IMG/VR virus record: IMGVR_UViG_3300033463_000013
Span: 64,001-128,000 of that record
DNA: 64,000 bases
Origin: a virus
Lineage: Duplodnaviria; Caudoviricetes
Reading direction: 5' to 3' (one strand)
Shown: positions 11,600 through 57,225 of the stretch, in pieces
How the letters are laid out: each line of letters begins with the position of its first letter
Position numbering within the stretch: the stretch's first letter is position 1
The notes under the pieces: generated by a model
What the model was told of the DNA's origin: nothing
Seen by the model: the letters and a program-made list of their open reading frames with translations, nothing else
Database searches by the model: none
Program-made: the position numbers and the translations under genes

Positions 11600-12907
11600 T
11601 TGAAAAAGAAATACTCACTCGACTTTAATATAGTTCGAGATATCGACCGCATGAAAGCAGTCGAAGAAATTTTAGATCAAATGGAAACAGACCCGACTTA
11701 GACAGAGTTGGAACAAATGGCCTCCTACATCTTATACGGAAAGGACGAGAATGGACAAAATAGTATTTAGCGCAACGAAACAATTGATAAGGATAAAAGA
11801 TATAAGAGTTATAAGACAAAAGATGATAAAGTATAGTCCTTAGATGAGATTATGGAGGCTCCCGGATTTGACGAGCAATAGTTGCGCTCGGCATACAAAC
11901 GTGATGCATACACGGTTCCAAAACCATGCATCAACAAACCCCGCTATGACAAGAAAACCGGAGAAATGGTGGACCCTGGCGATAGCGATGTTCCAGGAAT
12001 GATGGAGTAGTGGGAAATTATTGATAGATGGCAACATATGTTAGATGTTGCATAGGGTAAGGTGCCGCCGCAAGAAGGCGATACAATTGTATCCGATCCC
12101 TATCGCATCTATCAGTTAAAACATAATTTAATTGATATTAGAAAACATCAATACTACTTGAAAGATTCGTATAAGCCAACATTACATTTCCAAAATATGG
12201 ATCATCCAAAACCCCAATTCTATGATTGGAGTAGTGATGCCTTCTACTGGGTATCGCGCGATTAGTGGCAAGAAAAAGTAGACAAATCCTATACTTCCCG
12301 TGTTTCTAAAAATTTGAAGGATTATGAAACTAGAGGGGAGGGGGATAGTTTAGAAATTAAATGGGTAGTATGCCGCCATACATTTGATTGGGAGAATCCT
12401 AAACATGTTCGTGCATTACTTAATCATTATCATACGCTATATGAAGCTATGCGCGATAAGCTTAACACATACGGACGCACCTTACTATGGGATTTCGACC
12501 GTTATGTTTCATTGTGTGACTTTAGTGAATTGCGCCTATTCCTTATTGAATTGAGGAAAATGGGGTTAGCTTATGAGGATATTTTGGAAGAGATGCGCGC
12601 GAAATATGCAATGGAATATTCACCGAATTATTTGGTTTCAATCGTAAGTACGGAAGTACCGAATAGAATTGCGAGAGTTGCGCGTATGCTTCGTATTGAG
12701 AATGAAACGCCAATGGAAAAGAGAAAATAGTGTATTCATTGCGGAAAAATGTTACCGGCCGATCCACTTTTCTTTAGTAGAAATAATTCTCATAAAGATG
12801 GACTATCGAATACATGTAAATAGTGTGATCGTGTTTCAAGAATTAAACGAGGGGTGATTAGCGGTGGAGACCTTAGAAAAAAAGACCCGACGCTGCCTCA
12901 AGTGTAA
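11600..12907 (+). CDS. 435-aa protein with sigma-region-4-like HTH and C-terminal Zn finger (TAG=Gln); putative regulator or packaging factor
   Basis: GGAGGTG RBS and TTG start; one frame with 9 in-frame TAG, ending TAA; C-terminus CIHC...CK(TAG)C. Confidence 0.8.
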
Positions 12908-13817
12908 ACGTGAATAGCCACTTGAATTGTTTTAGGCAACACCTTCAAAATATTTTCCAGGTGGAAAGTGTTATATTTGTACGCCATGTTTAGAAGTTAT
13001 GACACCACAAGACAATTTAGGTGAAGTTGACCGTTTAATGCGTTGGTTAGATCTTCCATTTGACCTCAATAAATGGACATAGTTATATGAGTAGCATCAA
13101 GATCATACATTAACTGCTTATTTTAATTTACTGTATGATGACCATTATGAACCTTTACGTTGGGCAGATGAAAATGAAAGATGGAGATTGGCGCGAGAAG
13201 AAGGTACAATTGATGATGAAATTAAAGCATTAAATGATGCAAAATTGAAGAAGTTGAGAAAAGTTTGGTCAGGTTCATATAAGCCAGAACAACTTCTTTG
13301 GTTAGATAATTTTTATAATTAGATTGTAGCAACTTAGAATGTATCTACTCCAATTTTACAAGAAAAAGCACGAGATTTTTGTGAACTGCAATTGAGAATT
13401 AAAAATGGACTTCGCAATGGAGTGGATGTAAAAAAGGACATGGATGCGGCTGATAATATAGTCAAGACATACAATTTCTAGGCATCAAATGCAAAATCAG
13501 CGGCAGATTTTGAGTCTGTTGGAGAGTTAATGGTATATTATGGTAAAAAAGGGTGGCACCCCAACTGGCATACCGAACCACAAGATTCCATTGATTTTAT
13601 GATGGAAAATATTCAAAATTATTTGAAACGTTTAGTTATTAATGAGGGTAATTTTGCGGAACAAGTTGAAGATAAACGTGAAAGATATAATATGACTGAA
13701 AGATTAGAAAAAATTGAAAATGAAAAAGTTGATTTTGATGAAACTGCTAATATTGATTATGAAAATAGTGATGAACTTGCCGCCGAACTTGGAGAGGGAG
13801 GGGGTATAGATGAATGA
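12864..13817 (+). CDS. Zn-finger protein upstream of terminase, probable terminase small subunit (TAG=Gln)
   Basis: GTG start with RBS; CLKC...CYICTPC; several in-frame TAG; joins ORF 13530..13817; position directly before TerL. Confidence 0.72.
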
Positions 13818-15591
13818 TTTAGAAGAGGTTGTATTAAGAGATGGTATACCAATTGAAAAAGGTATAGTTCTTACGAAAGAATATTTAGATAATAATTAGG
13901 AATTGTTTACTAAATATTTAAACTTTTGGATTAAATATCCAGATCTATTTTTGGATGCAATTCAAGATTCAACTGATGCAATTAACTTTCATTTAAAGCC
14001 ATTCCAACGTGTAGCTTTGCGCGCGAGTATGCGTTATAGGTATCATTTTTGGACAGCTACACGTGCAACGTCTAAATCGTTCACAGCATATTTAAGTGCG
14101 TTAGTTCGTGCAGTATTATTACCAAATTCAACTTTAATGATTGTATCTGATACAAAGGGAACGGTTATTAAGATTGCAGAAGCAAAATTTGAAGAAATTT
14201 TTCGTCACTGGCCTTTACTTCGTAATGAGCTAAAGACCCGATAGGATGATGGTAAAACAGGTATTAAATCTAGTTCTAACTATTATGAAATTTATTTAAA
14301 GAATGGCAGTATGATTAGTGTTATCTCTAAAGATACGTCAAGAGGTCTACGTGCCACAGGCGCAGTTCTAGAAGAGTGTGCATTAATTGAAGAAGTTCCT
14401 TTTAACGAAGTTATTTGGCCTCAGATGAATATTGCGCGAAAAGAAGTTGATGGAACACTTAATCCTGAAGAGCCTGCAGCATCTCAGACCTTCATTACTA
14501 CTGCAGCTGAACGCACGGTATTTATGTATTAGAAATTAATTGAGATTACTGTAAACGCTGTATTGCGACCGAAAGAATACTTCTCATGGGGCTTATCCTA
14601 TGAAGTACCGCTTCATTATGGACTTATTAATAAAGAGACATTAATGGACCAGCGTTATTCTAATACTGTTAGTGAAGATAGCTTTGCGCGTGAATCTCTC
14701 TCAATATGGAGCGGCAATAGTGCAGATGCTTGGTTAGATTCACGTAGATTAAATAGACATCGTTCTTTATTATATTGTGAACGTGAAGCACATAAATTAC
14801 CAGATGGCGGATTCTATTTAATTGGTGTTGACGTTGCTCGTTATGGTGCGAATACTGCTGTTATGGTAGTTAAAGTATTACCTGGAGTACAACGTTTTAA
14901 AAAGAATGTTGTATATACAGAAGTAATACATGGAGAAAATTATATTACAGTACAAGCACCAAGAATTAAAAAATTAATTTAGTTATATAATCCGCGCGAA
15001 ATTATTATCGACGGTAATGGACCTGGTATTGGTTTAATGGATGCTATGGTACTTCCATCCTTTGATCCAAAAACTGGTGAACAATTTCCAGCGTATTATA
15101 CATTTAATGATGAGAATCATTTACCTCCAGAAATGCATGATGAAGTAAATGAGCCTGTTCAAAAATATAATGCAATTATATATGATGTAAAAGCTTCTGC
15201 TTCTAATGAAGATGAAATTCATGCGGCTTTTCTTACTTCAATTAATAATGGTTCAACTGCATTTTTAGCACATGAACGCGTGGTTAAAGATAAATTAATG
15301 TAGACTAAAAAGGGCCAAAGAATGACTTCCTATGATAGACGAGTATTCTTATTACCATATGAAATGACTTCACGATTAATGGATGAACTTAATAATTTAA
15401 GACTAAAACCTACAGGTGTAGAAAATAAATATAAAGTAGAACGTATTTCAAAATCCATTGAAAAAGATAGATTTTCTGCACTAGAATATGCTATGTACCG
15501 TATTAAGTATTATGAAGATAAAGAAATTTTCCGTAGGAGAAAAAAGAATATTGATTCATTTGGCTTTTTCACTCCTAAAAATAGGAGGTGA
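13810..15591 (+). CDS. terL: Terminase large subunit, 593 aa (TAG=Gln)
   Basis: Five ORF-track fragments in one frame, joined over 5 TAGs. Walker A-like ATRATSKS, Walker B AVLEEC, RNase H-like GVDVAR, IDGNG and KDRFSA. Confidence 0.93.
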
Positions 15592-15596
15592 TTTTT

Positions 15597-17138
15597 GTGA
15601 GTTAGGATTTTTTAACGATGTTTAAGAAACCATAGTTTAGAATAAACTATGTTCCTATGGACTCTCGTGAACGCACCTCTCGTTGGGGCGGCCATAGATA
15701 GAATAGCGTTTATAGAGATTTTACGCTAGAAGAAATTGAAGATATAATTCGCTCTGGCGAGATTTCCGCTATTCGTGAGCTGTCTCGTTATTATTATAGA
15801 ACGAACGGGCGTTATCGTAATAGTATAGATTTCCTTGCGAGTCTTCCACTATATGATACTGTTGTTACACCAATATATGAAGTTGGAAAAGGTTCTAAAA
15901 CACAAATTATAAAAGCATTTTATAATGCATGTGCTTTTGTAGAAGCATTAGATGTTAAAAATACATTAACACGTATTACTAGAGAATGGTTAAAATCCGG
16001 CATATATTATGGTATTTTACAGGAATATGGAGATAAAGTAGTGGTACAAGATTTACCAGTTGAATATTGTCGTACTCGTTTTAAAGATTTTAATAATTTA
16101 AGTATTCTTGAATTTAATATTCAATATTTTATTACATCATATTCTGATGATAATGTGCGTGAAGCGGCAGTGTTAAATTTTCCAGATGTAATTCAAAAAG
16201 CTTGGAGAGATTGGAAAAATAATAAATTAGATAATCCTTGGATTATGGTGCCAGCAATGAGTGGCGGGGTAGTTTTCTGTTTTGCAGAAGATTAGACTCC
16301 ATTATTCTTAGCTGCTATACCTGAATTAGCTAAATTAAAAGATGCCGTAAAACGTGAAGAAAAACGTGATGAAAATGAATTATATAAATTATTAATTCAT
16401 AAAATGCCGACTGATAGTAATGGACATTTAATCTTTGAATTAGATGAAATCGCGGAAATTCATGCTGGTATTGCTAATATGCTTTCTAGTTTAGATACAG
16501 TTGATGTATTAACTACTTTAGGTGATGCAACTTTAGAAAATTTACAAGATACATCTGCTGCATCATAGGCGAATAATCGTATTGAAAAATATAGTAATAA
16601 TGCTTGGGATGCTTTAGGAAGTAGTGAATTATTATATAATGCAGATAATAGTTCATCTTTAGCATATGTTATTAAACGATTAGCAGGTCTTACTCGTACA
16701 TATTTAAATATGTATAGTACATGGATTAAATTTTTAATTAATAGCCGTTTTAATCGTACAGGACTAACATTTGATTTTGAAATTTTACCAACTAATGAAT
16801 TTAATTTAAAAGATTATACAGGATTTTATTTACAATAGGCACAATTCGGTTATCCACGTATGCGCGCCGGAGTAGCTCTAGGAGTAAAATAGCGTGATTT
16901 AGTTAGTGCTATTGACTTTGAGAATGAGTTCTTAAACTTAGATGAAAAGATGATTCCATTAATGTCATCTTATACTCAAACTGGAGATGAAAATTCTTCG
17001 AAAAAAAATAAATCTTCAGAAAAAAATAGTAATAGTAATGGTTAGGTAAAAGACATAACTAATAAGGGCGGAAGACCAGAATTAGCTGATGAAGAAAAGT
17101 CTTAGAAAACAAGAGCAAATATTGATGCTATGGGTTAA
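15597..17138 (+). CDS. Portal protein, 513 aa (TAG=Gln)
   Basis: Follows TerL; continuous frame with only TAG interruptions (first at codon 3); C-terminal PLMSSYTQ...GGRP signature. Confidence 0.85.
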
Positions 17139-17153
17139 GGAGGAGACTAAAAT

Positions 17154-18485
17154 ATGAAAAGAAATATTCCAATTTATTTCGATAATGCTATTATTATGTC
17201 ACCTGCTGAACCTATCAATGGCTCTACAGGTCTTAATAGATTAAAAGTTGGCGTTTTTACCAAATATGGTAATCGTAATGGTTCTTATATTAAGGATGAC
17301 GTTGCAGAAATGATGATTGCTAGTGCAACCAAAGGAGATACTCCAGTAGTTGGTTTCTTTGATCCAGAATCAAAGAATTGGGCAAGTCATACTGGACCAA
17401 CTTTAGCGAGCGCCTATGGCTATGTTGAATATTTTGAAGGATGGCAACCATTTACAGATACGGATGGAGTTCAGCGCGATTATGCGGTTTTCTCTGTTGT
17501 GCTATTTACAAAATATTTTAATGAAGCCAATTTTGTTGTTGGACAAAATCAAAGTATGGAACTTGATATTAATTCAATCGAAGGTGATTGGGCAAATATC
17601 GGTGATACAGAATATTTTGTCTATACTAAAGCTGAAATCATGGGGCTGTGTATAATTGGTGACCACGAACCATGTTTCTCGGTTTCATCTTTCTTCTCGA
17701 AGAATGATGATACTTATAAATCTCAATATGAAAAGTTCTCTTCTCTATTGGCTGATTTGAAGGCTAAGGTGGAAGAGGCAGAAAATCAACCAAATGAAGG
17801 AGGGGAACATCAAATGGAAATTGAAATGAATCCCGAAGTAAATGAACCCACTCCTGCACAGGAATTTGAAGCCCCAGCGGCCGAAGAACCTGTAAATCAG
17901 GAGCCAGAAGCTCCAGCTGCAGAAGCTGCTGCTGAAGAACCAGCTGCAGAACCAGAACAGGAACCTGCTGCAGAAGAATCTGCAGAAGAACCTGCCGCTG
18001 AAGAACCTGCTGCTGAGCCTGAAGGTGAAGAGGGTGCAGAACCCGAAGAACCCGCAGCAGAAGAACCTGCTGTAGATTTTGAAGCACAGATTGCTGAACT
18101 TCAGAATCAACTAACTGAAATGACTACTAATTATGAGAATGCTCAAACTCGTATCGCAGAACTTGAGTCCCAGATAACATCCGCGTCTGAAACTGAAGCT
18201 ACTCTACGTGCTGAGATTGCTACTTATGAAGCCGAGCGTGCTCGTTTAGAAGTAGAACAAAAAACTTCCTTAATTGAACAGTATGCTACTGATTTAACTG
18301 AGGAAGAGATTAGCCCAATTCGTGAAGAAATGGATAATTTCTCTTATGAAGAATTGGAAAGCAAACTAGCAGTTTGTTATGCTAAGAAACACATGACTGG
18401 CAGTGCTGACAACAAAGTAGTTCCACTACCAGAACCCGTTGTTGATGAATTCGCGTTATTTATGCAGAAATATCGCAAGAATTAA
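17154..18485 (+). CDS. Prohead protease/scaffold fusion protein
   Basis: Lies between portal and capsid genes; N-terminal protease-like region (QSMEL, GLCIIG..EPCF), acidic linker, coiled-coil C-terminus; no TAG. Confidence 0.82.
   Translation: MKRNIPIYFDNAIIMSPAEPINGSTGLNRLKVGVFTKYGNRNGSYIKDDVAEMMIASATKGDTPVVGFFDPESKNWASHTGPTLASAYGYVEYFEGWQPFTDTDGVQRDYAVFSVVLFTKYFNEANFVVGQNQSMELDINSIEGDWANIGDTEYFVYTKAEIMGLCIIGDHEPCFSVSSFFSKNDDTYKSQYEKFSSLLADLKAKVEEAENQPNEGGEHQMEIEMNPEVNEPTPAQEFEAPAAEEPVNQEPEAPAAEAAAEEPAAEPEQEPAAEESAEEPAAEEPAAEPEGEEGAEPEEPAAEEPAVDFEAQIAELQNQLTEMTTNYENAQTRIAELESQITSASETEATLRAEIATYEAERARLEVEQKTSLIEQYATDLTEEEISPIREEMDNFSYEELESKLAVCYAKKHMTGSADNKVVPLPEPVVDEFALFMQKYRKN
17860..18075 (+). 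repeat. Imperfect coding tandem repeat (EEPAA)n in the scaffold linker
   Basis: Repeated GAAGAACC(T/A/C)GC(T/A/C)GC units. Confidence 0.85.
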
Positions 18486-18498
18486 GGAGGAATAACTT

Positions 18499-19104
18499 AT
18501 GGCAATGAACAGATTTCCTATTACCAATGTTGTGGGCGATCTAGTTGACCAGCATCGTGATCCCGATGAAAAGCTATATGCCAGCCTAGAACTAAACCAA
18601 GTAGCATTCCCAAAGACTGGTATGGTAGTTTCTCAGACCCCTCTCGGAGCCGCATTCACCAAGGCTAATCCTTGTGAAAATGGCATGTGGGTTGTTGCTG
18701 ACAAGGCCGCTGGTGCTATCAATGCTCCCGCTGCTGCAACCGATTCCCCAATTGGTATTGTTTATACTACAGAAAAAGAATATGACCGTGAACATTATGG
18801 TCTACAACGCTTCGGCCGCAAGATCGCTGGGGATTATCCTCGTGTTGGCATCTTAGGTTTAGGCGACACTGTAACTACTAACTGCTTACAGTATGATACC
18901 ACTGATTTCGCTAATGATACAGCTCTTGATACTGCTCTAAAAGCAATTGGAACTACTCCTCTCTACGTTGCAATTAAAGCTGGTTCTCCAGTTCCTCAGA
19001 TTGTAGATGAGATTCCACAGGCTGGTATCTATGCTAAGATCGTAAAATATTACACTATACCTAACGGCGGAAAGGGCGTTAAGTATCAGATTATGCGTGT
19101 ATAA
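18499..19104 (+). CDS. Head decoration/minor capsid protein
   Basis: Lies between scaffold and MCP; CENGM motif; high-expression codon style; no TAG. Confidence 0.68.
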   Translation: MAMNRFPITNVVGDLVDQHRDPDEKLYASLELNQVAFPKTGMVVSQTPLGAAFTKANPCENGMWVVADKAAGAINAPAAATDSPIGIVYTTEKEYDREHYGLQRFGRKIAGDYPRVGILGLGDTVTTNCLQYDTTDFANDTALDTALKAIGTTPLYVAIKAGSPVPQIVDEIPQAGIYAKIVKYYTIPNGGKGVKYQIMRV

Positions 19105-19118
19105 TGGAGGTGCGACTT

Positions 19119-20210
19119 ATGAATAAGCTACATATGTTAATGAACGGCGTATTTGGTCGTGCCGTTCCTGCTGAATTTGCAGCAGAAAATTACGATTACG
19201 AAGCCGCTCTCCGTGATGAATTAGCAAAGCTAATGACTAAGGATGGCGTACACTTCAATCGTCACGTCTTCAATCGCAATAAAGAAGACGTTTTCGAACT
19301 CCTAGAAGAAAATCTACAGGAAGTTCTACCACAGAACGTAAAGAGTGCTCTCGATATGTTCGTCGAAGTAAAGAATTATGCTCAGGGCCAACGCCCAGAG
19401 TTCCGCGTAGTTCGCGGTAAGATTCGTGGCAAGCAGTTCGTTACTCGTGCTACCGAATCTGGTAACTATGAAACCTTCCGTCTAGACCGTGATCGCTTTG
19501 ATCTATACATCCAAGCTATTGGCGGTGCTGGATATGTTGATTTCGAACGTTATCTAGATGGTCTCGAATCCATGACTGATATTTACGAAGTAATTCAAGA
19601 AGGTATCGTAGACCGTCTATTTGAAATGGTACAAGGTTGCCTACTTAATTCTTGGAATGCTGCTGGTCGTCCAGCTCGCAACAAGGTTGCAACCAATCAG
19701 TTCAATCCTACTGCTATGAAGAAACTATGCAACACCGTTGCTCCTTATGGCAGCCCAATTATCTACTGCACTCCTGAATTTGCTGCTGAAATGGTAAACG
19801 CTCTAGTTTATAATGCTAATAACATTAAACTATCTGATGTTGATATGCAGGAAGTTCGTGATCGTGGATATATCGGCAAGTTCTATGGCACTCCAGTTGT
19901 TGTAATGCCACAGTCTTGGACCGATGAAACCAATACTAAGCTACAGTTCAACCCAGCATTTGCTTATGTATTACCTGCTGGCAAGGAAAAGATCATTAAG
20001 ATGGCTTTCGAAGGCTCTCCTTACTTCCGTGAGTGGGATGACCATGAAGGCGATAATTCCTTCACTCTACAGGGCTATGTAAAGGTTGGCGTTGGCCTAT
20101 TCACCACTCCTAACTATTGGGGCATTTATTATAATGCCGCACTATCTCAGGGTAGCGGTTGGGAAACTGAGAATGCTAGCGTAGTAGCTAATAATGAAAT
20201 TACTAACTAA
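19119..20210 (+). CDS. Major capsid protein
   Basis: 363 aa, position in the head module, strong codon bias, followed by a strong terminator; no TAG. Confidence 0.85.
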   Translation: MNKLHMLMNGVFGRAVPAEFAAENYDYEAALRDELAKLMTKDGVHFNRHVFNRNKEDVFELLEENLQEVLPQNVKSALDMFVEVKNYAQGQRPEFRVVRGKIRGKQFVTRATESGNYETFRLDRDRFDLYIQAIGGAGYVDFERYLDGLESMTDIYEVIQEGIVDRLFEMVQGCLLNSWNAAGRPARNKVATNQFNPTAMKKLCNTVAPYGSPIIYCTPEFAAEMVNALVYNANNIKLSDVDMQEVRDRGYIGKFYGTPVVVMPQSWTDETNTKLQFNPAFAYVLPAGKEKIIKMAFEGSPYFREWDDHEGDNSFTLQGYVKVGVGLFTTPNYWGIYYNAALSQGSGWETENASVVANNEITN

Positions 20211-20222
20211 TTAGTAATATAA

Positions 20223-20260
20223 TGGGAGGGAGGTAATCCCTCCCTCCCAGATTTTCTTTT
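20223..20260 (+). terminator. Rho-independent terminator after MCP
   Basis: TGGGAGGGAGG-TAAT-CCCTCCCTCCCA followed by a T-rich tract. Confidence 0.85.
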
Positions 20261-20283
20261 GGAGATAAAAGGAGGATAATAGT

Positions 20284-20724
20284 ATGTCTATTAGAATTAA
20301 AAATATTAGTACGAATTTAGTTTCGTTATATGCGCCAAATGTTCATTTTAATCGTGAACTAATGCCGGGGCGTGAAATTCCTGTTTCATAGGAAGAATAT
20401 GAAGAACTTACTTTTGACACCGGCTTTATGCAGCTAGTTAATGGACACTATCTGAAGATTCTTGGTGTTGATGAAGAACAGGCTGTAGAAGTTGTTGAAG
20501 ATATATTCGAGGCTTCTGAAATTGAAAAGATGCTAGTAAATAATGATGTAACTGCTTTTGCAAAGTTTATTCCAAAGGCAACCGATGCTGAAAAAGAGAG
20601 TGCAGTTACTCTAGCCGTAGAGCACAAGATTACCAATGCTGGTATTGTGGCCCTAATTAAGAAATACTGCGATGTTGATGTAATCAAGGCTATTGCCGCA
20701 AAACACGACGCAGAAGAGAAGTGA
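20284..20724 (+). CDS. Virion assembly protein, 146 aa (one TAG=Gln)
   Basis: GGAGG RBS and ATG at 20284, in frame with ORF 20428..20724 across one TAG. Confidence 0.75.
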
Positions 20725-20730
20725 TGACAA

Positions 20731-21222
20731 ATGGCAACACCCTTCTTAAAGGTTTATGACGCTTTTCTCGCACGCATAACCGCGGACGAGTGGACATTAG
20801 AAGAAGAGTTAGCTATCGTAGAACGAGATTGGCAAGAACTTCTCAAAATGGCCATTGCTCGGTTTAAATATCCTCGTGTGAGTTTAGAGTTTGAGGAAGT
20901 TGATGCCGCTAATATAGATGACAATTCTCCTCAACTTAAAATATATTAGTTCCAAAACGATTTAACCAATGCAGAAGTTCAAGTTCTTGCTACCTATATG
21001 AAGCATGAATGGATTAAGCGTTGCGTTGCAAGCTGGGAACATATAGGCCAGCTTTATACTTCAAAAGATTTCTCCGCAGCAAATCACTTAGATAAGTTAA
21101 ATGATTTAGAAGCAAAAGTTGCTCTTGAATGTGAGGCAGCAAAAGATGACTATGACAAATCTCGCGGACATGCCCCTTCAGAAATCTTCAGATAGCTTGC
21201 AGGAAAAAAGTAGTATACCTAA
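20731..21222 (+). CDS. Putative head-tail connector/adaptor (TAG=Gln)
   Basis: Joins ORFs 20731..20949 and 20998..21195 over TAGs; first TAA at 21220-21222. Confidence 0.72.
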
Positions 21223-24064: not shown

Positions 24065-24084
24065 TTTTAAAGGAGGTAACTTTT

Positions 24085-25170: not shown

Positions 25171-25191
25171 TAAAGGTGGTGGTGCCACTTG

Positions 25192-46800: not shown

Positions 46801-49057
46801 TTATGCTACTAAATTTGAAGATTTATTCTCTACCATTGTCGCATAGACAGAAGCTATGAAGAAAAATGCTAATATTTTAAATTTAGCTTCATCAGTGATA
46901 GGCTCTAATGGATTATTATCAGCTTCTGTATTACAAGATAGTATGTTAAAAGTAGATCTAAATTATGCGTTTAATAATGGTAAACTTACTATTGACGAAA
47001 AGAATGGCATTTGGGGCGTTAGCGATGCTGGCGTTGTTGCGTTCCGCGGCGGCGGAATTTTTACGGCTACAGAATAGGATGAAAATGGATAGTGGAAATG
47101 GAATACTGGTATTTTACCTTCTGGCATTAATGCTGATTTAATTACTAGTGGTCAATTAGATACTAATAAAATAAAGATTTATGCAGGAGATAAAGTTAAA
47201 TTTCAACTTAATGGAGATGGATTATTTGCTTATAAATCTTTATTTTCAGATGGCGTTATTGACACATCTACTGTAGGAGGCCAAACATATCTTAGTACTA
47301 AAATCGGCTCTTCTGATTTACATACGGCTAATATTGATATGGATGCTAGCCAATTTGTTACTTTTAATGAAGAGGGTTTATTCTTAGTTGCAAAAAAGGG
47401 AGCATTAGTATTAAATGAAGATAAAAATGGTTATATTACGGTCGCTGAAAATTTAACATCGATTACTGAAGTTAAACGTGTTGAAATTAGTTGGGATGGA
47501 TTAAAATTACGTAATTGGGATAATAAAGAAGTATTTTATGCTGATCCAAATAGTGGAGATTTAACGCTAGAAGGCTCCGTTATTGCTGATTCTGGACGTA
47601 TTGGTGGTTGGGATTTAAGTGACAAAGCATTAACTGGTCAATTTATGCAGTTAGTTAATGATAAAACAAATATTAATGCTAGTGGTATCTTTTTGACTGA
47701 TACTAGTATTACTAGTAATGAAACAATTCAATATAATAATACAACATTATATGCATATACACTTAGTACACGTCCAGGAGAAGCATTTTATTGTGCTGAG
47801 CGTTAGAGTAGTATGAATGCGAATGGAAAAACTATTTATGGCTATGGAACTCGTATTTAGTCAGTGGTTCCTAAATATACTGCTAAACGTGAATTTAGTT
47901 AGACTAGTACAACCGGTAGTTCGGTCTCTGCGGGAGACCCAGGCGAAGAAGATATGGGTCAATATGGAAGTACTACTTATACTTCTGGTACTGTTTATAA
48001 ATATTAGATAACATATGTATCAACGCAAAATAATAATGTTAATGCAATTGTTTAGTATAAAGGTAAAGATATTGAATATGATGGGAATACCTCTCCTAAT
48101 GCTTCATGGTATTCTTAGTTATAGGCGGCTTTACCAAATACATACTTAAATTATGTAACAATTACTAGAGTTTCAACTTCTAATTTAGTTCAAATAACTG
48201 GGTTAACTGGAACATTAACGTTAGCTACCTATACTCCACATTTTAGTGTATATGCCAATGGTACTGTTATTATAGAAAAAGGTACTTTAGGCGGTTTTAC
48301 ATTAACATCTACAAAATTATTGAATGGTATATTAGAAAATACAAATTTAACAGGTAGCACTATTACCAATTCGATAATTAAAGTTGGTGATACAGCATAT
48401 AATACAAATGACTATGGGCAATTATTCAAAGATTTTACGCCGAACAGTGCGACCGGATAGTTTGTATTGACAAGAAATAATGGGAATACCGTAACTTTTA
48501 ATATAGCCGATACAGCATATTTCAGATCAGCGGTATCGGCAGCACGCGTAATAACGCTTGATCTGAGGTTTGTGAATAATGCATATAATTCTAAAGCTAC
48601 AGCTACAGCAACTACGCCGGGTTTCGGTGCAATTAGTGGATATACTGCTACAGCAGAAGCGTCTTTAGCACCAATTTACAGAAGCGGTTATAATGCCGGT
48701 AAAACGAAAGGTGCAAATGATGTATATATAAAAATTATATAGTGGAATGCGTGGACAAAGACTAGTGCCACAGTCTATTCACAACAGGTAGATTTAACTT
48801 TAAGTAATGGTAATAAGTATACTAGATCTACAGTTATTGATATAGAATCTGATTTAAATGCCTCGTATAAAGACGGATGGAATGATTGTAGAGATGCGAT
48901 GGGTTCGGGAGTACAATGTTTAACTGGCTGGACTGATTATAATAATGGTCGGGCGACAACATTATATAAAAAATCTGGTGATTCTGCTGGCCTTCATGCC
49001 TGGCGTTATGGTGGAACAGTTTCTACTAAATATTCTAAGCCCCCCGCGAAAACATAA
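43823..49057 (+). CDS. Large tail tip/baseplate hub (Tal-like) and host-specificity protein, about 1,744 aa (TAG=Gln)
   Basis: Follows Dit; fragments 43991 to 48742 share one frame; GINADLITSGQLDT and GRIGGW motifs; ends TAA at 49055-49057. Confidence 0.8.
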
Positions 49058-49097: not shown

Positions 49098-49474
49098 TCT
49101 TGTATAAAATCTTCAATTAGTATTATTTTTGATGGCGCGATTTCAATATTTTCTAAATCTTCTAATGGAATCGGCTCGGCATCAATACTAACTACAGTAT
49201 TTAATAATGAAGCAATTTCTTCATTAAATTCATTTACTTTTGTAGGTAGGATTTTATAACTATTATTTTCTATTATTGGATTATCATTTTCATCTTTTTC
49301 AGAATAAGTATTAATTAATTTTGTACGTCCTTCATTAAATAATGACAGCTCTTCTTCAACTTTTTTTAATAGTTTAGCTACATGATAAGCCGTTCTACCT
49401 TTAATGGGACTATCTGATAATTCTTTTAACACATCTATACTATTGATAATGGTTAATAATTTAACTTCAATCAT
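49094..49474 (-). CDS. Conserved phage hypothetical protein (DUF1617-like)
   Basis: ORF of 126 aa, coupled to the upstream gene by TAATG; no TAG. Confidence 0.7.
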   Translation of the reverse strand: MIEVKLLTIINSIDVLKELSDSPIKGRTAYHVAKLLKKVEEELSLFNEGRTKLINTYSEKDENDNPIIENNSYKILPTKVNEFNEEIASLLNTVVSIDAEPIPLEDLENIEIAPSKIILIEDFIQE

Positions 49475-50226
49475 TATATATCTTCACCCCATGTGGCTTT
49501 ATTTGCTTTAATTTTGCCGCAAAAATATTTTCCAATACAAATTGCATCTGACTCATCTTCAGTGCAATCCATATCATACCAAACTTTTACTTTAGCTTGC
49601 GCCTATTTTTTTTGAGCATCGCGGTGCTAATCTCCACCTGCAATACCACAATATGCTCTCCATTCTTTTGAATACACTAATTCGTGTTCTATACCAGCTT
49701 CATATACTACATCTAGTATCACTCCCTATAAATTTGCGAGTGTCTAAAATGTTTTAACCTAAACATCTGTAGCTTTCTCGCCGTATTTCTATAATTGAAT
49801 ATTCTCAATTCCAACGAAGTCTGGTTCCCATTCTTTTAATGCAGCTTTAAGCCAATTTTTTACTTGATTAATACGATCGGTCGCTGGTAAGGAGGAATTT
49901 GTTTTAAAAATTCCATATCCGACCAGTACTTTATTATCATATATTGCATAGCCTGTGATGCCTGTTGCGGCATCTAAGGCTAGAATACGCTATGTATCTG
50001 TACCCTTTTTGGGTACTTTATTTTTTTTGACTTTATATGGATCTCCGGCCATACAAATATCACAAATTTTATGTTTACGCCACTAATCGAATGTCTATTC
50101 CTATTTATGCCCCGCTGGACAAATTATTTCAATCGGAGTTTTAAGATTCTTATAAACTTCGCTTACTAATTTCCATCCTTCCGCTTCCAAGGCATTTTTT
50201 ACAACATAAACATTAATTGTACTCAT
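49474..50226 (-). CDS. ruvC: RuvC-like Holliday junction resolvase with N-terminal Zn finger, 250 aa (10 TAG=Gln), absent from the ORF track
   Basis: RILALDAATGITGYAI, VGIENIQ, LANL(TAG)GVI and DESDAICIG motifs; CPAGH...CDIC at the N-terminus. Confidence 0.87.
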
Positions 50227-51023
50227 TATTTATCAGTACTTCCGAAACCGCCTTCACCGCGATCGGAGTCAACTAAAATATCAACTACTTTAGCTTGGAA
50301 GCGATAGCTTGGCATTACTAGTAGTTGTGCAATACGATCACCGGCATGAATTTGATAATCTTCATCAGAAGTATTATCATAAATAACTCCTAATTCACCA
50401 CGATAACCGCTGTCAATAAGTCCAACACTATTGCTTAAACGTAATGGAGTTTTTAGTCCAATACTAGAACGAGGAAGAATAAAAGCTAGCCATCCTTCCG
50501 GCAATTGAATTTTAACTCCAGTTTTTATCATATTGCTATAAGAATGTGCTGGAATAGTTTGATCTTCTTTTGCGTATATATCCGCCGCAGCGTCCGTCTC
50601 ATGCGCATATGATGGGACTTGTGCGCCAATATTAAGTGTTAGCGGTAAAACAATATTATAACTATGATATTTTTCTACCGCGGTGTCAATAACTTTTAAC
50701 ATTGAATCCATAATACCGTCAATTAGAATCTTCTTATTACCTGTATATGGTTCATCAGTATAAATAGATTCATTTAAAACATTTTTTAATGTATTTGCTG
50801 AATTAATAACTTCTTGCTTAGTTAATCCTTGCTGTTCAAAGCCATTAATTAATTGTGTTACAGATTGATTAATCATTGCTGGAGAAAAACTTTGCTTAAA
50901 CTGTGCTTGTACTAATGTCATTACATCATCAGTTAAAGTATCTTCATCTAATTCTGCCATTTCTTTAATCGCATCTATAATACTACCCAATTCAGTTCCT
51001 TCAAATTCATTCATTTTATTCAC
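50226..51023 (-). CDS. dut: Trimeric dUTPase with an N-terminal extension of about 120 aa
   Basis: AADI, PRSS, GLIDSGYRGE, GDRIAQ and RGEGGFGST motifs. Confidence 0.93.
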   Translation of the reverse strand: MNKMNEFEGTELGSIIDAIKEMAELDEDTLTDDVMTLVQAQFKQSFSPAMINQSVTQLINGFEQQGLTKQEVINSANTLKNVLNESIYTDEPYTGNKKILIDGIMDSMLKVIDTAVEKYHSYNIVLPLTLNIGAQVPSYAHETDAAADIYAKEDQTIPAHSYSNMIKTGVKIQLPEGWLAFILPRSSIGLKTPLRLSNSVGLIDSGYRGELGVIYDNTSDEDYQIHAGDRIAQLLVMPSYRFQAKVVDILVDSDRGEGGFGSTDK

Positions 51024-51026
51024 CTC

Positions 51027-51627: not shown

Positions 51628-51628
51628 A

Positions 51629-52573
51629 TTATCCTCCACCACCAGAATTCTTATTATAGCCAAATTCCTATGTCTTAAAGAACTCTATGTAGTATTTTTC
51701 AAGTTCATTTAATTTATCTTTATCAGCATAGGTGATAACTTCAATCGTCCAATTCCAAAATCCTTCTTTTAGTATTGCATGATGTACAGCTTGATCTGCA
51801 ATTGACTTTATTCCAATTGCGCTTTTAAAGTGGTCTGCTATACGCTTCTTAACATCTGTACTTTTCCCAATATAAGCCATTCCATTTTCTAGACTTGTAA
51901 GTTTATATATTCCTGGCTCAGTTTTAATTTCAATCCGCTTGAAGGTATCCTCTATATTGGGTTTAACATATTCTGACCAAACTAATTTACTTATTATATC
52001 TGGATGTTGTACTTTCGCCGCGACAGTAGTAAGTAAGAACTCAATATCATCTTGATATTCTTCAGGTAACTAAATAGTATAGAATAAACGTTCTTGCTTT
52101 TCTTTTTCATACTGTTTAATTGGTTCAAGTAAACTTTCATACTTCTATTTTTCTTGATTTACTTTATTCCAATATTGAGCCGCTTCATATTCTGTTTCTG
52201 CTTTAGTATTTTTTAATATCTCATCTAAACGTGAAATTTCATTATCAACGTCTTTCTATTTAGATTCAATTATTCTATTTAGATCTTCTTGACGATTTTT
52301 CCGCTATCTTTCCATGGAAGCGTCTATTTCTTTAAGTCTATTATCGGTTATATCTTGATATACATCTAATGCTGCTTGTAAGTCCTTACGACATTCTTCA
52401 AGCTTATATTTTTCGTAATCAATCTATTCATCTAATACTTGTTTTTCTGCTTTGGTATCAATTAATTGATTACGATATTTATCAAGTTCAGTTCTATCAA
52501 TTTTCTATTTTTGATAAAGTTTATATCCTAAAAATATTATTATAATAAGGCATCCGATTATAGCATATATCAT
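51629..52573 (-). CDS. Membrane-anchored coiled-coil GIY-YIG nuclease, 314 aa (7 TAG=Gln)
   Basis: N-terminal TM helix (MIYAIIGCLIIIIFLGY), coiled coil, GIYKLTSLENGMAYIGKS, LNELEKYYI and FGYN; only TAG interruptions. Confidence 0.85.
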
Positions 52574-52603
52574 CAAATTCACCACTATTTTCTTTGATAC
52601 CTT

Positions 52604-52632
52604 ATTATAACAAAATTTTTTTAAATTGTCAA
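52604..52632 (-). promoter_or_regulatory. Consensus sigmaA promoter
   Basis: TTGACA, 17 nt, TG-T-TATAAT; no palindrome. Confidence 0.85.
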
Positions 52633-53192
52633 GTGTTGGATTTTAATCCTTGGGCACTGAAAAATATTCCACCAATAATATTTCCTGTGATTGTTAAAAG
52701 TAAGTTCCAACTAAAAATTCCGCCCGTTAACATATAATAGAAATCAGCAATACAGTGATTAAATCCTGCTAGAATAAAAGTAGCAACTGCTAATACTGTG
52801 ACCCATAAAGGAGTTTCTTTATAAGTTGCCAATGACATTAACATTCCGCAACCTATTCCTTTTAAAAGAGCGTCAGTCCAAAGTTGACTTTGTTTGGCTA
52901 ATGCAATTGACTGTGCAGCTTCATGTATAAGTGGAATAGACCAACAGGCTATAATTGCTACTCCAAAAAAATTACACAGTAATATTAATGGATAATAGTA
53001 CCAAGTATTTTCCTTTGTTATCATATATTGAACTTTTCCTGTGAACAGGTGTAATCCATATAGACGCACAGTTAATAATCCACAGGCAAAAAGCACTGCT
53101 CCAATAATGTGGTTGGGCGCGGAAAGATACGCCCAACCTCCTAATGCTATGGCCATTCCTGCGAATACCGCTCTTGATAATTTATTTGCCAT
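52629..53192 (-). CDS. Formate/nitrite transporter (FNT) family channel
   Basis: Multi-TM protein with LFTG and FILAGFNHCIAD signature motifs. Confidence 0.85.
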   Translation of the reverse strand: MANKLSRAVFAGMAIALGGWAYLSAPNHIIGAVLFACGLLTVRLYGLHLFTGKVQYMITKENTWYYYPLILLCNFFGVAIIACWSIPLIHEAAQSIALAKQSQLWTDALLKGIGCGMLMSLATYKETPLWVTVLAVATFILAGFNHCIADFYYMLTGGIFSWNLLLTITGNIIGGIFFSAQGLKSNT

Positions 53193-53676
53193 TTAAATAA
53201 TCCTCCATATAAATAATTCGTTGATTTGAAGATCCTCTTAATGGAAGAGTGGTATCGCGCTTATCTTGTTCATATCGTCCTTCAATTAAGCAGGTAATGT
53301 TTCGTAATACCGCACGAACATCATCGTCATCGCGCGCTTCAAGTTCTTCTATGGTATATCCAGTCCATACATATATTTTTAAATCTGGATAATCAAGTTT
53401 ACACCAACCTATAAGATTTAGGACATCGCCAATATTCTCATTATTTAATGGTTCGCCACCGAGAATACTTAATGTACGCATTACTCCATTTTTCTTTAGT
53501 TTTTCCATTATTTCTTGGCGCACATCTAAATCATATTCGCGTCCATAATTAAAATCTTGTGCTTCTGGGTTGTGACAACCGGGGCAATGGAAGTGACAGC
53601 CTGAGAAGTAAACCGAGAGGGAGATACCGGGCGCGGCTGCGGTATCATCCCAGTAAATTCCAGCTATTTTACTCAT
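53182..53676 (-). CDS. nrdG: Anaerobic ribonucleotide reductase activase (radical SAM)
   Basis: CHFHCPGCHN (CxxxCxxC), LGGEP and RGSSNQ; adjacent to nrdD. Confidence 0.95.
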   Translation of the reverse strand: MSKIAGIYWDDTAAAPGISLSVYFSGCHFHCPGCHNPEAQDFNYGREYDLDVRQEIMEKLKKNGVMRTLSILGGEPLNNENIGDVLNLIGWCKLDYPDLKIYVWTGYTIEELEARDDDDVRAVLRNITCLIEGRYEQDKRDTTLPLRGSSNQRIIYMEDYLNGK

Positions 53677-55931
53677 TAGTGGATGTGTTTGACGCGCTCT
53701 TCAGTTTCAACCTGCTTGCCCCTATTAAAAGCAGTTTTATAATTTCCGGTTAAGTAGCCAGTTACGCGTCTAAGTCTTGATATATTAGTACTTCCACACT
53801 GCGGGCACTTCTCGCCAATTTCATCTTGATAACCGCAGTCATTACAGCTATCTAACGGCACGTTGAGCGCGAAATAAGGTATATCGTGGTCCATCGCATA
53901 GTTTACTATAACTTCAAGTGCATCTATATTATTCTTTACTCCGCTTGGAACTTCTACATATGTGATACATCCGGCGCTAGAATATCCTGTTAGTTGGCTT
54001 TCAATATCAATTTTATCAAATACTGAAATGTCGTGCCAAACTGGTACATGCATACTATTTGTGAAATATTCATGGTCAGATACATTTGGAATCTTACCAT
54101 ATTTTGCGCGGAATTTCTTCATTGCGGTATAACAAAGATTTTCTGCGGGAGTATAATATACTCCGAAGTTTAGGTGATATTCTTTCTTAAACTCGGCGCA
54201 TCTATCTTTAAATAGTTGCTCAATACGCTTTGCTAGTTCCATGCCTTTTTCGGTAGTATGGTCACAACCAATTAGAATCTGTAAAGTTTCTGCAAGACCT
54301 AATTGACCTATAACTAATGTGCCGTGCTTTAGTGCAGAGCGAATACCTTCTTCTGGATGATAACCTAGCATTGTATGATTTTCATACATAAATTTGGCAG
54401 AAGAAGCATCTTGACTACAAATCCAATTGAAACGTTCAATAAGCATATCTTTGGCTTCATGGATTTTTGTATCAAGCAAATCCATAAAACAATCAATTAG
54501 TACTTGTTGATATTGTTTATCATCTATATAAGTTTGTTGTAATTGTTTTTCTTTTGCTTCCATAGCAAGTGTAGGCATAATAATTGTTACAGGACAAATA
54601 TTGCCACGACCATCCTTCATTTGAGGATTTGTACCAGGCTCAGCATTTATATCTCCAAGGTTCGCCGTGCGGCAGCCCATTGTAGAGAAGTAAGTGCGAG
54701 GATCATTAATATCATATCCAGCTGCATTAGACCAATCTACATTTGCGTAGTTTGGATAGATACGTCTTGCAGTTGATTCAAGTGCCAGTCTATATAAATC
54801 ATAATTTGGATCCCCATGATACCTATTTACACCTTTCATACATTGGAAGATTCCGCAAGGGAAGATAGGTGTTTTATGAAATTTACCCACCCCTTTAATT
54901 GAACCATTCAAAAGTGCTTTAATTACCATACGCCCTTCGGGTAGTGTACAAGTACCATAGTTAATGCTTGTAAATGGTAACTGATTACCACTACGAGATT
55001 GAAGTGTATTAAGATTATGGTACATACCTTCAACCGCTTGTTGAAGCTCGCGTTCTGTTTGTTCTAATGCATAATAATAAATACCTAAGTCTTGTTTAAA
55101 GTAATCATCCTCAATAGATAAATCCATATCTTTTGCATAAATAATTACTTGCTCTAATTCAGCTTCTGGGAGTCCTCCAATATATTTACAACCATCAGCA
55201 TAATGTTTATAAAAACTTTTCCTTACATAAGGCACCATAGTCCAATCCAAATGAGTAGCGCTAACACCGCCAAACTGCATTAGACTTTGTAACTGGAAGA
55301 TAACTGCTACGAGTTGGAAAGCAGTATTAATTGAATTAGCAGGACGTACATCAGTCTGTCTTGTATTAAATCCATTAGCAAGTAAGTCATCAAATGGAAT
55401 ACTTAAGCAATTATGCATACCAACAGCATATGCACTTAAATCGTGAATATAAATTTCATTATTTAAATGATTGGCTTTAGCCATTGGAGATACACAATAA
55501 TCAAGTGCATACTGCTTCATCATTTCATCAGAAGCCTCACCAACACGGCCGCCGAACGAATGTTCATCAATATTAGCGTTTTGGTTTTGAACATTTGTAG
55601 CACGAAGTTTTTCACTAATAGCCCGAATAAATTCAGTGGAGTTTGCGCGCATCACGCCGTGCTTATACCTATATTTAATATATGCTTTACCTACTGCACG
55701 ATCATAATCAGTTAGATAATCTTCGACTAATTCTTGAATATCTTCAACTCCAAGGGGTTCTTCCATTTCTTTAGCAACATTTTCTACTAATTCAGCAATT
55801 TCATCACCATAATTTGCTAATGTTTCAGCATGAGGATAAACCTCTTTTTGTGCTTTAAAAATAGCACGAGAAATTTTATCTTTATTAAATGGAACTAATT
55901 CACCCGTTCTTTTTCTAATCTGTAATTCCAT
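53676..55931 (-). CDS. nrdD: Class III anaerobic ribonucleoside-triphosphate reductase
   Basis: ATP cone (QIRKRTG), IYIHDL, MGCRT, TPAENL, Zn CxxC pairs and the RRVTGY glycyl-radical motif. Confidence 0.96.
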   Translation of the reverse strand: MELQIRKRTGELVPFNKDKISRAIFKAQKEVYPHAETLANYGDEIAELVENVAKEMEEPLGVEDIQELVEDYLTDYDRAVGKAYIKYRYKHGVMRANSTEFIRAISEKLRATNVQNQNANIDEHSFGGRVGEASDEMMKQYALDYCVSPMAKANHLNNEIYIHDLSAYAVGMHNCLSIPFDDLLANGFNTRQTDVRPANSINTAFQLVAVIFQLQSLMQFGGVSATHLDWTMVPYVRKSFYKHYADGCKYIGGLPEAELEQVIIYAKDMDLSIEDDYFKQDLGIYYYALEQTERELQQAVEGMYHNLNTLQSRSGNQLPFTSINYGTCTLPEGRMVIKALLNGSIKGVGKFHKTPIFPCGIFQCMKGVNRYHGDPNYDLYRLALESTARRIYPNYANVDWSNAAGYDINDPRTYFSTMGCRTANLGDINAEPGTNPQMKDGRGNICPVTIIMPTLAMEAKEKQLQQTYIDDKQYQQVLIDCFMDLLDTKIHEAKDMLIERFNWICSQDASSAKFMYENHTMLGYHPEEGIRSALKHGTLVIGQLGLAETLQILIGCDHTTEKGMELAKRIEQLFKDRCAEFKKEYHLNFGVYYTPAENLCYTAMKKFRAKYGKIPNVSDHEYFTNSMHVPVWHDISVFDKIDIESQLTGYSSAGCITYVEVPSGVKNNIDALEVIVNYAMDHDIPYFALNVPLDSCNDCGYQDEIGEKCPQCGSTNISRLRRVTGYLTGNYKTAFNRGKQVETEERVKHIH

Positions 55932-55936
55932 ATGAA

Positions 55937-56143
55937 TCACTCCTTGAACTTCTTTCCGCAATATGGGCATGAGTCACTATCGGAAAAATCATAACTTCCG
56001 TTACTATGCGGACATAACTTTTGTAAATCTTTAATTTCATCACGAATAATAAATACTCGATCTGAACGTTCCATTGTAGTTAGCGCCTTTTTCAATTCAG
56101 TACTTAATTCCTTATATTTGTTTTTAATATTATCTGTATTCAT
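55937..56143 (-). CDS. Small Zn-ribbon protein
   Basis: CPH...CPYCG; start at 56143 coupled to the upstream gene by ATGA. Confidence 0.7.
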   Translation of the reverse strand: MNTDNIKNKYKELSTELKKALTTMERSDRVFIIRDEIKDLQKLCPHSNGSYDFSDSDSCPYCGKKFKE

Positions 56144-57225
56144 ACTTTCCAAATTCCTCCCTTCTTAGCTGTTTCTGTAGTCTGGCGAAATAAGGTATTA
56201 GATGCTGGATATTTCTCTAATATAATTTCAAGCTGTTCGCGCTCAGGGCGCCGGTCAGATAATTTTTTATCTTTTGGTATCCTATCTATAATACTTTTAT
56301 AATCTTTTGTATCGCCTTGCGACCAAGTAGCAATTAATTTTGATATATCTGAAATTGGATTATAACAGCCTATCATTGGTTCTTCATATTTAATCTTAAT
56401 AGGAATGTTACAGCTCCAAAATACATATAATAAATTTAATTTATAAATTATATCTTTTAAATAATCCGATTGATAATGAAATGAGCCGCCAAGTGAAAGA
56501 TATACCTAAGCGCTTGGACTTACTGCAGCCAATAAGCGATTCTTATAATGCTTCATCAATATTGGTGTTTCTTTTAATGGTATATTTAAATCTAAATATG
56601 CATCATTACTTCGATTAATTAAATAATTTTCACGGACATCTAAAAAATCAGAAATTTTCTTATAATGAGCCGGATGAATAAAATTAATTGAAGAAGGCTT
56701 CCTATCAATCATCTTATCTATTATATTTCTCCAACCATCTTGAAAAAAATCTATATCATAAATATAAATACGATGACGTTTTTGAATTGCAGGAAGAGGT
56801 AGCACATCCTCTCCCGCGTGCCATCTATAATATGAATTATCTAGTAATCGCGCAATTTCAATATCTTTTATACCAGCTACACGCTTATCTTTTAAAAAAT
56901 CATGATATATACGTGTGCGCGCGATAGTATAATCTATTAATTTATTTTCAAATGGAACATATTTACCATTGGTAAATGCTGTTCCTCCATATATAATATT
57001 ATCTGCTCGTTTAAAAATATCTGGCACAGTCACAAAATCTTTAGATTCACTAAAAATATATATCTTTTCATAACTTGTTAATTCAGTTTCATCTAAGTTA
57101 ATCAGACGACAAAATTTATTTTCTTCTTGTTGATAGTAAGTAGCAAGTTTCATTATTTCAAGATTTGGAGGGCAGAGTGATGGTTTCTGCCACAATTGTA
57201 ATTGTAAATCAACTAAACCTATCAC
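56140..57225 (-). CDS. Hypothetical protein with a degenerate radical-SAM-associated N-terminus, 361 aa (one TAG=Gln)
   Basis: ORFs 56506..57225 and 56140..56376 are in frame across a single TAG; MIGLVD...PNLEIMKLATYY motif; no CxxxCxxC. Confidence 0.68.

Follow-up and report, generated by a model that had tools for sequence, protein, structure and literature searches.

The window analyzed here is a stretch of 64,000 nucleotides, bases 64001-128000 of one contig of 181,407 bp (IMG/VR record IMGVR_UViG_3300033463_000013), which has direct terminal repeats and a completeness rating of 100%. The contig has Rfam matches to the cow-rumen-3 and cow-rumen-4 motifs, bovine gut metagenomes contain near-identical DNA, and the phage is a cattle-rumen phage of 181 kb. 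The subject is the codon TAG, which interrupts the frames of many of its genes and which a preliminary description of the range 11600-57225 had taken to be read as glutamine (Gln). It was found that 29 genes between 11585 and 63634, comprising 16,941 codons, contain 263 in-frame TAG codons, no TAA, and no TGA, which bears out the remark that the frames are broken by TAG alone. The two off-frames of the same genes contain TAA, TAG, and TGA 556/487/196 and 970/288/1139 times, respectively.

A plus-strand block of conserved late genes opens with a gene for a sigma-factor-like protein with a C-terminal HNH/endonuclease VII-like zinc ribbon (11585-12907; phrog_5767, 2.2e-20; nine TAG codons, 2-11 in orthologues). 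It is followed by a gene for a conserved protein of the function-unknown family phrog_3314 (12864-13817; seven TAG), the gene for the large terminase subunit TerL (13714-15591; phrog_2, 7e-23; six TAG, 3-10 in orthologues), and the portal gene (15588-17138; phrog_2739, 4.1e-68; nine TAG, 2-12 in orthologues). Three head genes for proteins of 443, 201, and 368 amino acids (17154-20210) have no TAG against 40 CAA/CAG codons. The last of the three (19104-20210) encodes a major capsid protein of the HK97 fold, whose AlphaFold model (pLDDT, the predicted local distance difference test score, 76) matches the lambda and HK97 capsid proteins in Foldseek with a probability of 1.00; Pfam gave zero matches on the structural proteins, and PF27364 is listed for homologues of the capsid protein. 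Four smaller head-tail genes lie at 20284-20724, 20731-21222, 21450-22781, and 22792-23298 and have one, three, seven, and four TAG codons. The next gene (23285-24064; 259 codons, phrog_4051) is invisible under code 11, having 12 TAG against five CAA/CAG codons (5-13 TAG in orthologues). A TAG-free gene for a virion structural protein (24061-25119; phrog_2729), whose product is probably the tail tube as judged only from its position, is followed by its paralogue (25189-26064; phrog_2729), which has four TAG codons and is also hidden under code 11.

The largest gene of the window encodes the tape measure protein, assigned with PHROGs (26125-41808; 5227 codons). It has Gln/Glu-rich repeats and 144 TAG against 205 CAA/CAG codons, so that TAG makes up 41% of its Gln codons. 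In four complete relatives (G001-G004, among which G001 is 98% and G003 100% complete), the tape measure open reading frame (ORF) has 4345-5369 codons and 124-146 TAG. The Thermus phages P23-45 and P74-26 reportedly have long tails and tape measure proteins of roughly 5000 amino acids. The length of the ORF in the window exceeds that figure and implies a predicted tail approaching 0.8-0.9 micrometres. Two large genes, for proteins of 660 (41816-43798; six TAG) and 1744 amino acids (43823-49057; 32 TAG), occupy the places expected for Dit and Tal; neither protein has a match in Pfam or PHROGs. On the minus strand, a gene for a RuvC-like resolvase (49474-50226; Pfam RuvC 26.9 bits with a cut-off of 22.2) has 10 TAG against four CAA/CAG codons, and its orthologues have 7-10 TAG. 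Thus, the names TerL, portal, and tape measure given earlier are supported by PHROGs and RuvC by Pfam, while Dit and Tal are names by position only. The three genes that had been said to be lost from the ORF track (23285, 25189, and 49474) are indeed hidden, their longest in-frame code-11 ORFs being 41, 55, and 41 codons.

Gene calling with the two codes was compared. ORFs of at least 100 amino acids cover 0.397 of the range 11600-57225 with code 11 and 0.987 with TAG as a sense codon; the values for TGA and TAA as sense codons are 0.459 and 0.703. The fragments found with code 11 become contiguous and tightly packed genes, including the tape measure ORF. In the whole genome, the coverage by ORFs of at least 200 amino acids increases from 0.287 to 0.638 when TAG is sense. 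The genes of the ORF set end with TAA (110) or TGA (54). That every gene ends in this way, as had been noted, follows from how the genes were called; independent of this is the finding that a TAG stop is not required by any gene. The sole serious candidate for such a stop, the minus-strand frame 56506-57225, runs on to 56140 and encodes a conserved protein of 361 amino acids (56140-57225), which code 11 would stop at 239 amino acids because of a single TAG at codon 240. A tblastn search found this protein at full length in the four complete relatives; at the position of its TAG, G001 has Gln and G002 has TAG, and in other columns G001 has TAG where the window has Gln. The repeats inside the tape measure gene tell the same. 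All those quoted in the preliminary description were found where it had placed them, in the frame of the ORF starting at 26125, and in a 21-bp tandem repeat (30475-30597) the third codon of the encoded heptads reads CAA, TAG, TAG, CAA, and TAG. These results show that TAG is a sense codon. Table 15 is required for annotating this phage family; with table 11, ORFs of at least 100 amino acids are lacking from about 60% of the range, and TerL, portal, and the tape measure protein vanish, as do several entire genes.

Could TAG still be a stop codon? The broken frames would then be pseudogenes, assembly errors, or split genes, or, in a variant of this idea, TAG would be edited to CAG in the mRNA. 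The probability of this is close to negligible. The essential TerL, portal, and tape measure genes would all be broken, the 263 TAG codons are accompanied by no TAA or TGA, the genome has a tRNA gene with a CUA anticodon, and the same pattern recurs in 30 independent loci and four complete genomes, in which TAG and CAA/CAG swap at the same columns. No direct support was found for a stop or for editing. RNA contigs from four rumen metatranscriptomes of three studies (bovine and sheep) barely cover the TAG-rich genes and neither show nor exclude mRNA editing; in them there is no T>C excess (16-25 places against 32-41 for C>T).

Which amino acid does TAG encode? Close portal matches in the protein database were not used. 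Their translations apparently already treat TAG as a sense codon, which would make the test circular, and the DNA of related loci was used instead. Orthologues of 15 window genes were taken from 30 related IMG/VR loci, whose portal proteins are 57-78% identical, translated with X at TAG, aligned, and mapped back to codons, a procedure independent of the translation table. Opposite 62 TAG columns of the window, the relatives have TAG 294 times, CAA 232, CAG 65, GAA 85, and AAA 67 times, and other codons more rarely. With substitution profiles from the same alignments, the likelihood of Gln is ahead of the next residue by about 1000 log units (the deficits are 1006 for Lys, 1024 for Glu, 1266 for Ser, 2203 for Leu, and 2516 for Tyr). 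When each column has one vote, Gln scores -146.9 and the next residue -219.5. In the reverse test, TAG of the relatives falls on 12.2% of the window Gln pairs and on no more than 1.2% for any other residue. A genome-wide repeat with the four complete relatives again placed Gln best, by 370 log units and with the same order of residues, and 22 of the 37 TAG columns whose sense residues agree in these relatives are Gln columns.

Single columns illustrate the exchange. Two conserved Gln columns of the portal have CAA 21, CAG 4, and TAG 2, and CAA 15, TAG 10, and CAG 2 times in the relatives, and alignment column 179 of the protein encoded at 12864-13817 has CAA 17, TAG 6, and CAG 1 times. The main partner CAA is two changes away from TAG, and TGG, one transition off, is almost absent; therefore, closeness of sequence does not explain the pairing. 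The codon alignments show that Gln is the amino acid that best fits TAG in evolution, and the glutamine claim of the preliminary description is supported by the excess of CAA/CAG over any other codon in the 30 loci and the four complete relatives. The phage thus appears to read TAG as Gln (NCBI code 15) and to terminate at TAA and TGA only; I assign this reading a probability of about 0.93, on the basis of sequence comparison. That such recoding is already known, as had been stated, is right (bioRxiv 10.1101/2021.08.26.457843; PMC9523058).

The genome contains 30 tRNA genes including one with the anticodon CUA, as the preliminary description had suggested searching for. This tRNA(CUA), found with ARAGORN and scoring 53 bits with Rfam, is 93 nucleotides in length and is encoded on the minus strand at genome c[5318-5410] (L031:5318-5410), outside the window. 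A tRNA-Gly gene lies one base downstream of it, and on the same strand, about 380 bp upstream, is a cow-rumen-4 motif (L031:5788-5855); the cow-rumen-3 motif is at L031:1062-1157. The acceptor stem of tRNA(CUA) is that of the phage's own tRNA-Gln(UUG), and the body has an A1 x C72 mismatch, G73, G2-C71, and G10. The identity set of Escherichia coli tRNA-Gln consists of a weak or absent 1-72 pair, G73, G2-C71, and G10, together with U35 and G36 in the anticodon loop. Judging from these sequence features, tRNA(CUA) has a Gln-type body of class I that fits the E. coli set. However, it has about 20 extra bases after the anticodon arm and a variable region of 23 nucleotides. The decoding loop is CUCUAAA (U35 and A36), whereas the loop of the extra arm is CUCUGAA (U35 and G36).

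Is this extra arm found elsewhere? A pattern scan of IMG/VR in which the extra region was left unconstrained returned both short and long tRNA(CUA) genes. The long ones fall into two sets: a Ser-/Leu-like set from other phages and a Gln-like set that includes the tRNA of the window phage. A covariance model separated 19 two-arm tRNA(CUA) genes (16 distinct) with at least 68 bits from ordinary tRNAs with at most 65 bits. In the Gln-like set, the extra helix has 3 bp, and all three pairs vary on both sides (TCC/GGA, TGC/GCA, GCC/GGC, and CCA/TGG). The extra loop of seven nucleotides reads, in the 16 distinct sequences, Y-U-[C13/U3]-U16-G15-A13-A/G, which is the anticodon loop of a tRNA-Gln (CUG or UUG). 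Position 73 is G in 13 of 14 two-arm tRNAs and the 1-72 pair is absent in nine of 14. On its two sides the extra hairpin has 2-6 and 5-6 unpaired bases, which sets it apart from the Ser-like set. These results show that the tRNA(CUA) gene and its conserved second arm exist. Three other IMG/VR phages have an adjacent pair of tRNA(CUA) genes, one of the 75-nucleotide Gln type and one of the two-arm type (L081:1228-1394, L132:2881-3047, and L152:994-1160). Ser-like class II tRNA(CUA) genes with G73 occur in unrelated IMG/VR phages (L110:7320-7407, L108:948-1035, L149:1301-1386, L142:3799-3884, and L101:1461-1544), and one at L092:8377-8459 is Leu- or Tyr-like with A73. The phages with these Ser-like or Leu-/Tyr-like tRNAs may read TAG as an amino acid other than Gln.

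The long extra region raises the question of whether TAG stands for a different amino acid in the window phage, namely Ser, Leu, or Tyr, whose tRNAs have a long extra arm, or Glu or Lys, which are the next-best fits of the alignments. I consider this very improbable. The 93-nucleotide tRNA with its 23-nucleotide variable region is formally of class II length, Ser-like and Leu-like tRNA(CUA) genes do occur in other IMG/VR phages, and Glu and Lys are the second and third commonest partners of TAG. Nevertheless, all five residues fall below Gln in likelihood, and the genome-wide repeat orders them alike. The class II tRNAs (Ser, Leu, and bacterial Tyr) and the Ser- or Leu-type amber suppressors share with the phage tRNA a long extra arm between the anticodon and T arms, but its D arm, acceptor end, and discriminator are Gln-like: the D region and the acceptor stem match the phage tRNA-Gln(UUG) and not the Ser-like tRNA(CUA) set, and class II features are not present in these two regions. 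Moreover, the sequence of its extra-arm loop is conserved as that of an anticodon loop, a trait that the variable arms of class II do not have, and the alignments reject Ser, Leu, and Tyr. Another known tRNA to compare is E. coli supE (glnV44), an amber suppressor tRNA-Gln with the anticodon CUA that is charged by glutaminyl-tRNA synthetase (GlnRS) despite A36 and inserts Gln at UAG. It shares the Gln-type acceptor end and the CUA anticodon with the phage tRNA. It differs in being an ordinary class I tRNA of 75 nucleotides, to which the phage tRNA adds the 3-bp hairpin with its CUG/UUG loop between the anticodon arm and the variable loop.

Under the Gln reading, TAG would most likely be decoded by the phage's own tRNA(CUA), charged with Gln by the host. 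The second arm would restore the G36 identity signal that is lost in a CUA anticodon, keeping the Gln identity for the charging enzyme. In such a five-armed suppressor, the CUA arm would read UAG, and the arm with the Gln anticodon would let the host Gln-charging machinery accept the tRNA despite the missing G36. This is a tentative idea, to which I give somewhat less than even odds. If it is true, the tRNA would be a natural uncoupling of tRNA identity from decoding and would explain why TAG recoding in phages goes to Gln. A literature search found no paper on a second anticodon-like tRNA arm, which is no proof that the design is unpublished. The second-arm tRNA gives a concrete and cheap experimental handle on the charging of a stop-reading tRNA by a host enzyme.

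Several points weigh against TAG being read as Gln by means of this tRNA. First, TAG is mostly found at variable positions, and only 22 of 61 columns have Gln as their plurality residue. The alignment at TAG columns, proposed earlier as a check, gave Gln enrichment in the codon alignments of the related loci, while distant TerL homologues (59 full-length sequences of 28-51% identity; the representative library holds 1129 TerL homologues) were uninformative, the six TAG columns being variable or gapped. Because TAG occupies variable sites, these distant sequences speak neither for nor against Gln. Second, the search for further machinery found in the genome neither a release-factor (RF) domain (PF00472) or RF2 gene nor a catalytic domain of the GlnRS/GluRS type (PF00749). 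Third, the position of the variable arm is far from the anticodon-binding site of GlnRS in the E. coli complex; since the short arm is thus far from that contact, its role as an identity mimic is a putative one. Fourth, the only host candidates, two Bacilli metagenome-assembled genomes (MAGs), have RF1, which would compete at TAG. Finally, tRNA(CUA) is not found in all relatives. A BLAST search of the relatives with tRNA(CUA) gave T-arm fragments only and was replaced by ARAGORN, a regular expression, and the covariance model. The two-arm tRNA(CUA) is present in G002 and G004, while ARAGORN with relaxed thresholds, the regular expression, and the covariance model found none in G001 and G003, though TAG is recoded equally there. 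Both of the latter have tRNA-Gln(UUG) genes. Therefore, a suppressor tRNA of the phage is not the whole story for the family.

This last point bears on a further explanation, in which TAG is read through without the phage tRNA, by a host suppressor tRNA, in a host with little or no RF1, or by a near-cognate tRNA-Gln, tRNA(CUA) being dispensable. In its favor, G001 and G003 have the same TAG signature (coverage rising from 0.25-0.27 to 0.64-0.65) with no detectable tRNA(CUA), and suppressor tRNAs are found in only 35-40% of recoded phages (10.1101/2021.08.26.457843). On the other hand, many phages have a conserved tRNA(CUA) that shows covariation, and the candidate host MAGs, linked to the phage only by an NrdD of 76-77% identity, carry RF1. 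No bacterium is known to read TAG as Gln, which also counts against decoding by the host. I regard this explanation as unlikely, and decoding by the phage tRNA as the better account.

How is TAG distributed among the genes? The ORF set of the genome contains 475 in-frame TAG against 1514 CAA and CAG codons, a few ORFs of the promoter-cassette region (described below) being doubtful. TAG is absent or nearly so from replication and nucleotide-metabolism genes, namely DnaE, NrdD, the RecJ-like gene, and the block reaching to about 172 kb of the genome, and this is also the case in the relatives. The RuvC gene with 10 TAG and the gene for a protein with a GIY-YIG nuclease domain (51629-52585, minus strand; Pfam GIY-YIG 6.7e-9; seven TAG, 8-12 in orthologues) are exceptions in an otherwise TAG-free operon. 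TAG occurs often in most virion genes. None is found in the HK97-fold capsid gene, the two head genes next to it, or the phrog_2729 structural gene at 24061-25119. The orthologues of the three head genes have 11 TAG against 757 CAA/CAG codons and those of the phrog_2729 gene 3 against 113, which gives 14 against 870 when the four genes are pooled; capsid orthologues have no TAG except for a single one in one of 18. The comparison shows that gene-specific TAG densities recur in relatives at 45-97% protein identity. The first tenth of the genes is mildly enriched in TAG (72 against about 40 per later tenth). Thus, the replication, nucleotide-metabolism, and small promoter-cassette genes are readable in both codes, while most virion genes and the two nucleases need TAG suppression. 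A further TAG-rich block at 8-45 kb of the genome has PHROGs matches only to families of unknown function.

Contigs of the rumen metatranscriptomes match the capsid and tail region (window 17600-20300 and 23900-25100) with 90-99% likeness. Members of the phage family appear in field RNA libraries, although this may reflect carry-over of DNA. The contigs are dense on the TAG-free capsid and tail genes and thin on their TAG-rich neighbours, a contrast that is confounded and not usable for ranking expression: conservation, too, is highest in the TAG-free genes, and relatives at that likeness are present in the runs.

By delaying or limiting certain proteins until suppressor tRNA has become plentiful, TAG may serve as a lock; where output has to be at its maximum, there may be selection against it. 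I infer that the pattern fits selection on TAG use in both directions. The capsid gene and three other structural genes do not conform to a simple model in which late genes are locked, and the plain picture in which all late genes are recoded is contradicted. The use of TAG, conserved down to a protein identity of 45-60%, would be a selected property of each gene, not a blanket code of late genes, and this sharpens the published model of recoding as regulation into testable predictions. The sigma-factor-like gene at 11585-12907 looks like a fusion with the zinc ribbon and is a possible late transcription factor; as it carries nine TAG codons, such a factor would itself depend on TAG suppression.

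Phages with code 15 (TAG to Gln) are known from the gut, including the Lak phages, crAss-like phages, and clades named after gemstones (Borges et al., bioRxiv 10.1101/2021.08.26.457843), and in crAss-like phages there is proteomic proof of TAG as Gln (PMC9523058). It is well supported that the window phage is a new rumen member of these known code-15 phages. It shares with them in-frame TAG in structural genes, termination at TAA and TGA only, TAG aligned with Gln, its own tRNA(CUA), largely code-neutral replication genes, a host inferred to use the standard code, and an animal gut source. It differs in lacking the "code change module" of RF2 or an aminoacyl-tRNA synthetase (aaRS), in having a capsid gene and three other structural genes free of TAG, which is kept in the relatives, and in having two TAG-rich nuclease genes in an operon of early type. 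As for the lock model of Borges et al., which concerns late and lysis genes, the early and replication genes are TAG-free or nearly so here as it holds, except for RuvC and GIY-YIG, while the structural genes are not recoded as a class.

Another TAG-recoded phage is phAss-1 of the proposed Phassvirus group (PMC10607447; OQ749652). Like the window phage, it is a large siphophage with suppressor tRNA genes, no aaRS, a Pol III alpha gene, a suggested Bacillota host, and a very long tape measure protein (3149 amino acids against 5227), and the TerL proteins are detectably related. They differ in that TerL is only 33.7% identical, the genome is 136 kb and not 181 kb, and the source is the human gut and not the rumen. 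The best TerL matches among GenBank phages are at most 37.5% identical and include, besides phAss-1, Geobacillus, Enterococcus, Bacillus, and Lactococcus phages. Three features deserve following up: the TAG pattern that is conserved gene by gene, the family members in which no suppressor tRNA was found, and the tRNA with two arms.

The remaining genes of the window can be described briefly. A dUTPase gene (Pfam) lies at 50226-51023. On the minus strand, the TAG-free nucleotide-metabolism genes (52629-55970) consist of a 187-amino-acid ORF, a 164-amino-acid ORF, and the gene of the anaerobic ribonucleotide reductase NrdD (53676-55970; Pfam), whose orthologues have 0-2 TAG. Further along this strand are the gene of Pol III alpha (DnaE; 57222-61238; 1338 amino acids, Pfam), with no TAG against 59 CAA/CAG codons and 0-1 TAG in orthologues, and that of a RecJ-like protein (61859-63634; 591 amino acids, Pfam) with no TAG. 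The 146-amino-acid ORF between them (61229-61669, minus strand) has one TAG at codon 4, which is probably upstream of the true start.

The closest NrdD sequences, with 76-77% identity, are those of the two MAGs mentioned above, which are rumen genomes named "Bacilli bacterium" and encode GlnRS, RF1, and RF2. This match is a hint, or a guess, at the host lineage and not a host assignment; the host of the rumen lineage is probably a member of Bacillota. No related prophage was found in the two MAGs. The NrdD match in them spans 3.2-3.4 kb (L196:2001-5206 and L198:2001-5392), against 2.3 kb for the phage protein of 764 amino acids. Because of this excess, the stretched copies suggest an inserted element such as an intein or an intron.

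The GC content is about 0.31-0.38 across most of the window and 0.42-0.52 in its first 12 kb. This part contains, from 480 to 9100, about 19 copies of a 23-bp palindrome, ATTTAGGTGTTNAACACCTAAAT, spaced 250-840 bp. Each copy is followed on the minus strand by a promoter of the TTGACT/TATAAT type and an AGGAGG ribosome-binding site; therefore, the real genes there are short minus-strand genes. The negative GC skew of the region fits minus-strand genes. Code-11 ORFs of the minus strand cover 72% of this promoter-cassette region (window 1-9100), and nearly all of them end with TAA or TGA. Between 9056 and 11160, just upstream of the conserved late block, there are ORFs with a GC content of 0.58-0.60 (334 amino acids with six TAG, and 231 amino acids), compared with a genome average of 0.36. 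They have no PHROG match, the 30 related loci essentially lack them, and the segment is probably variable or acquired.

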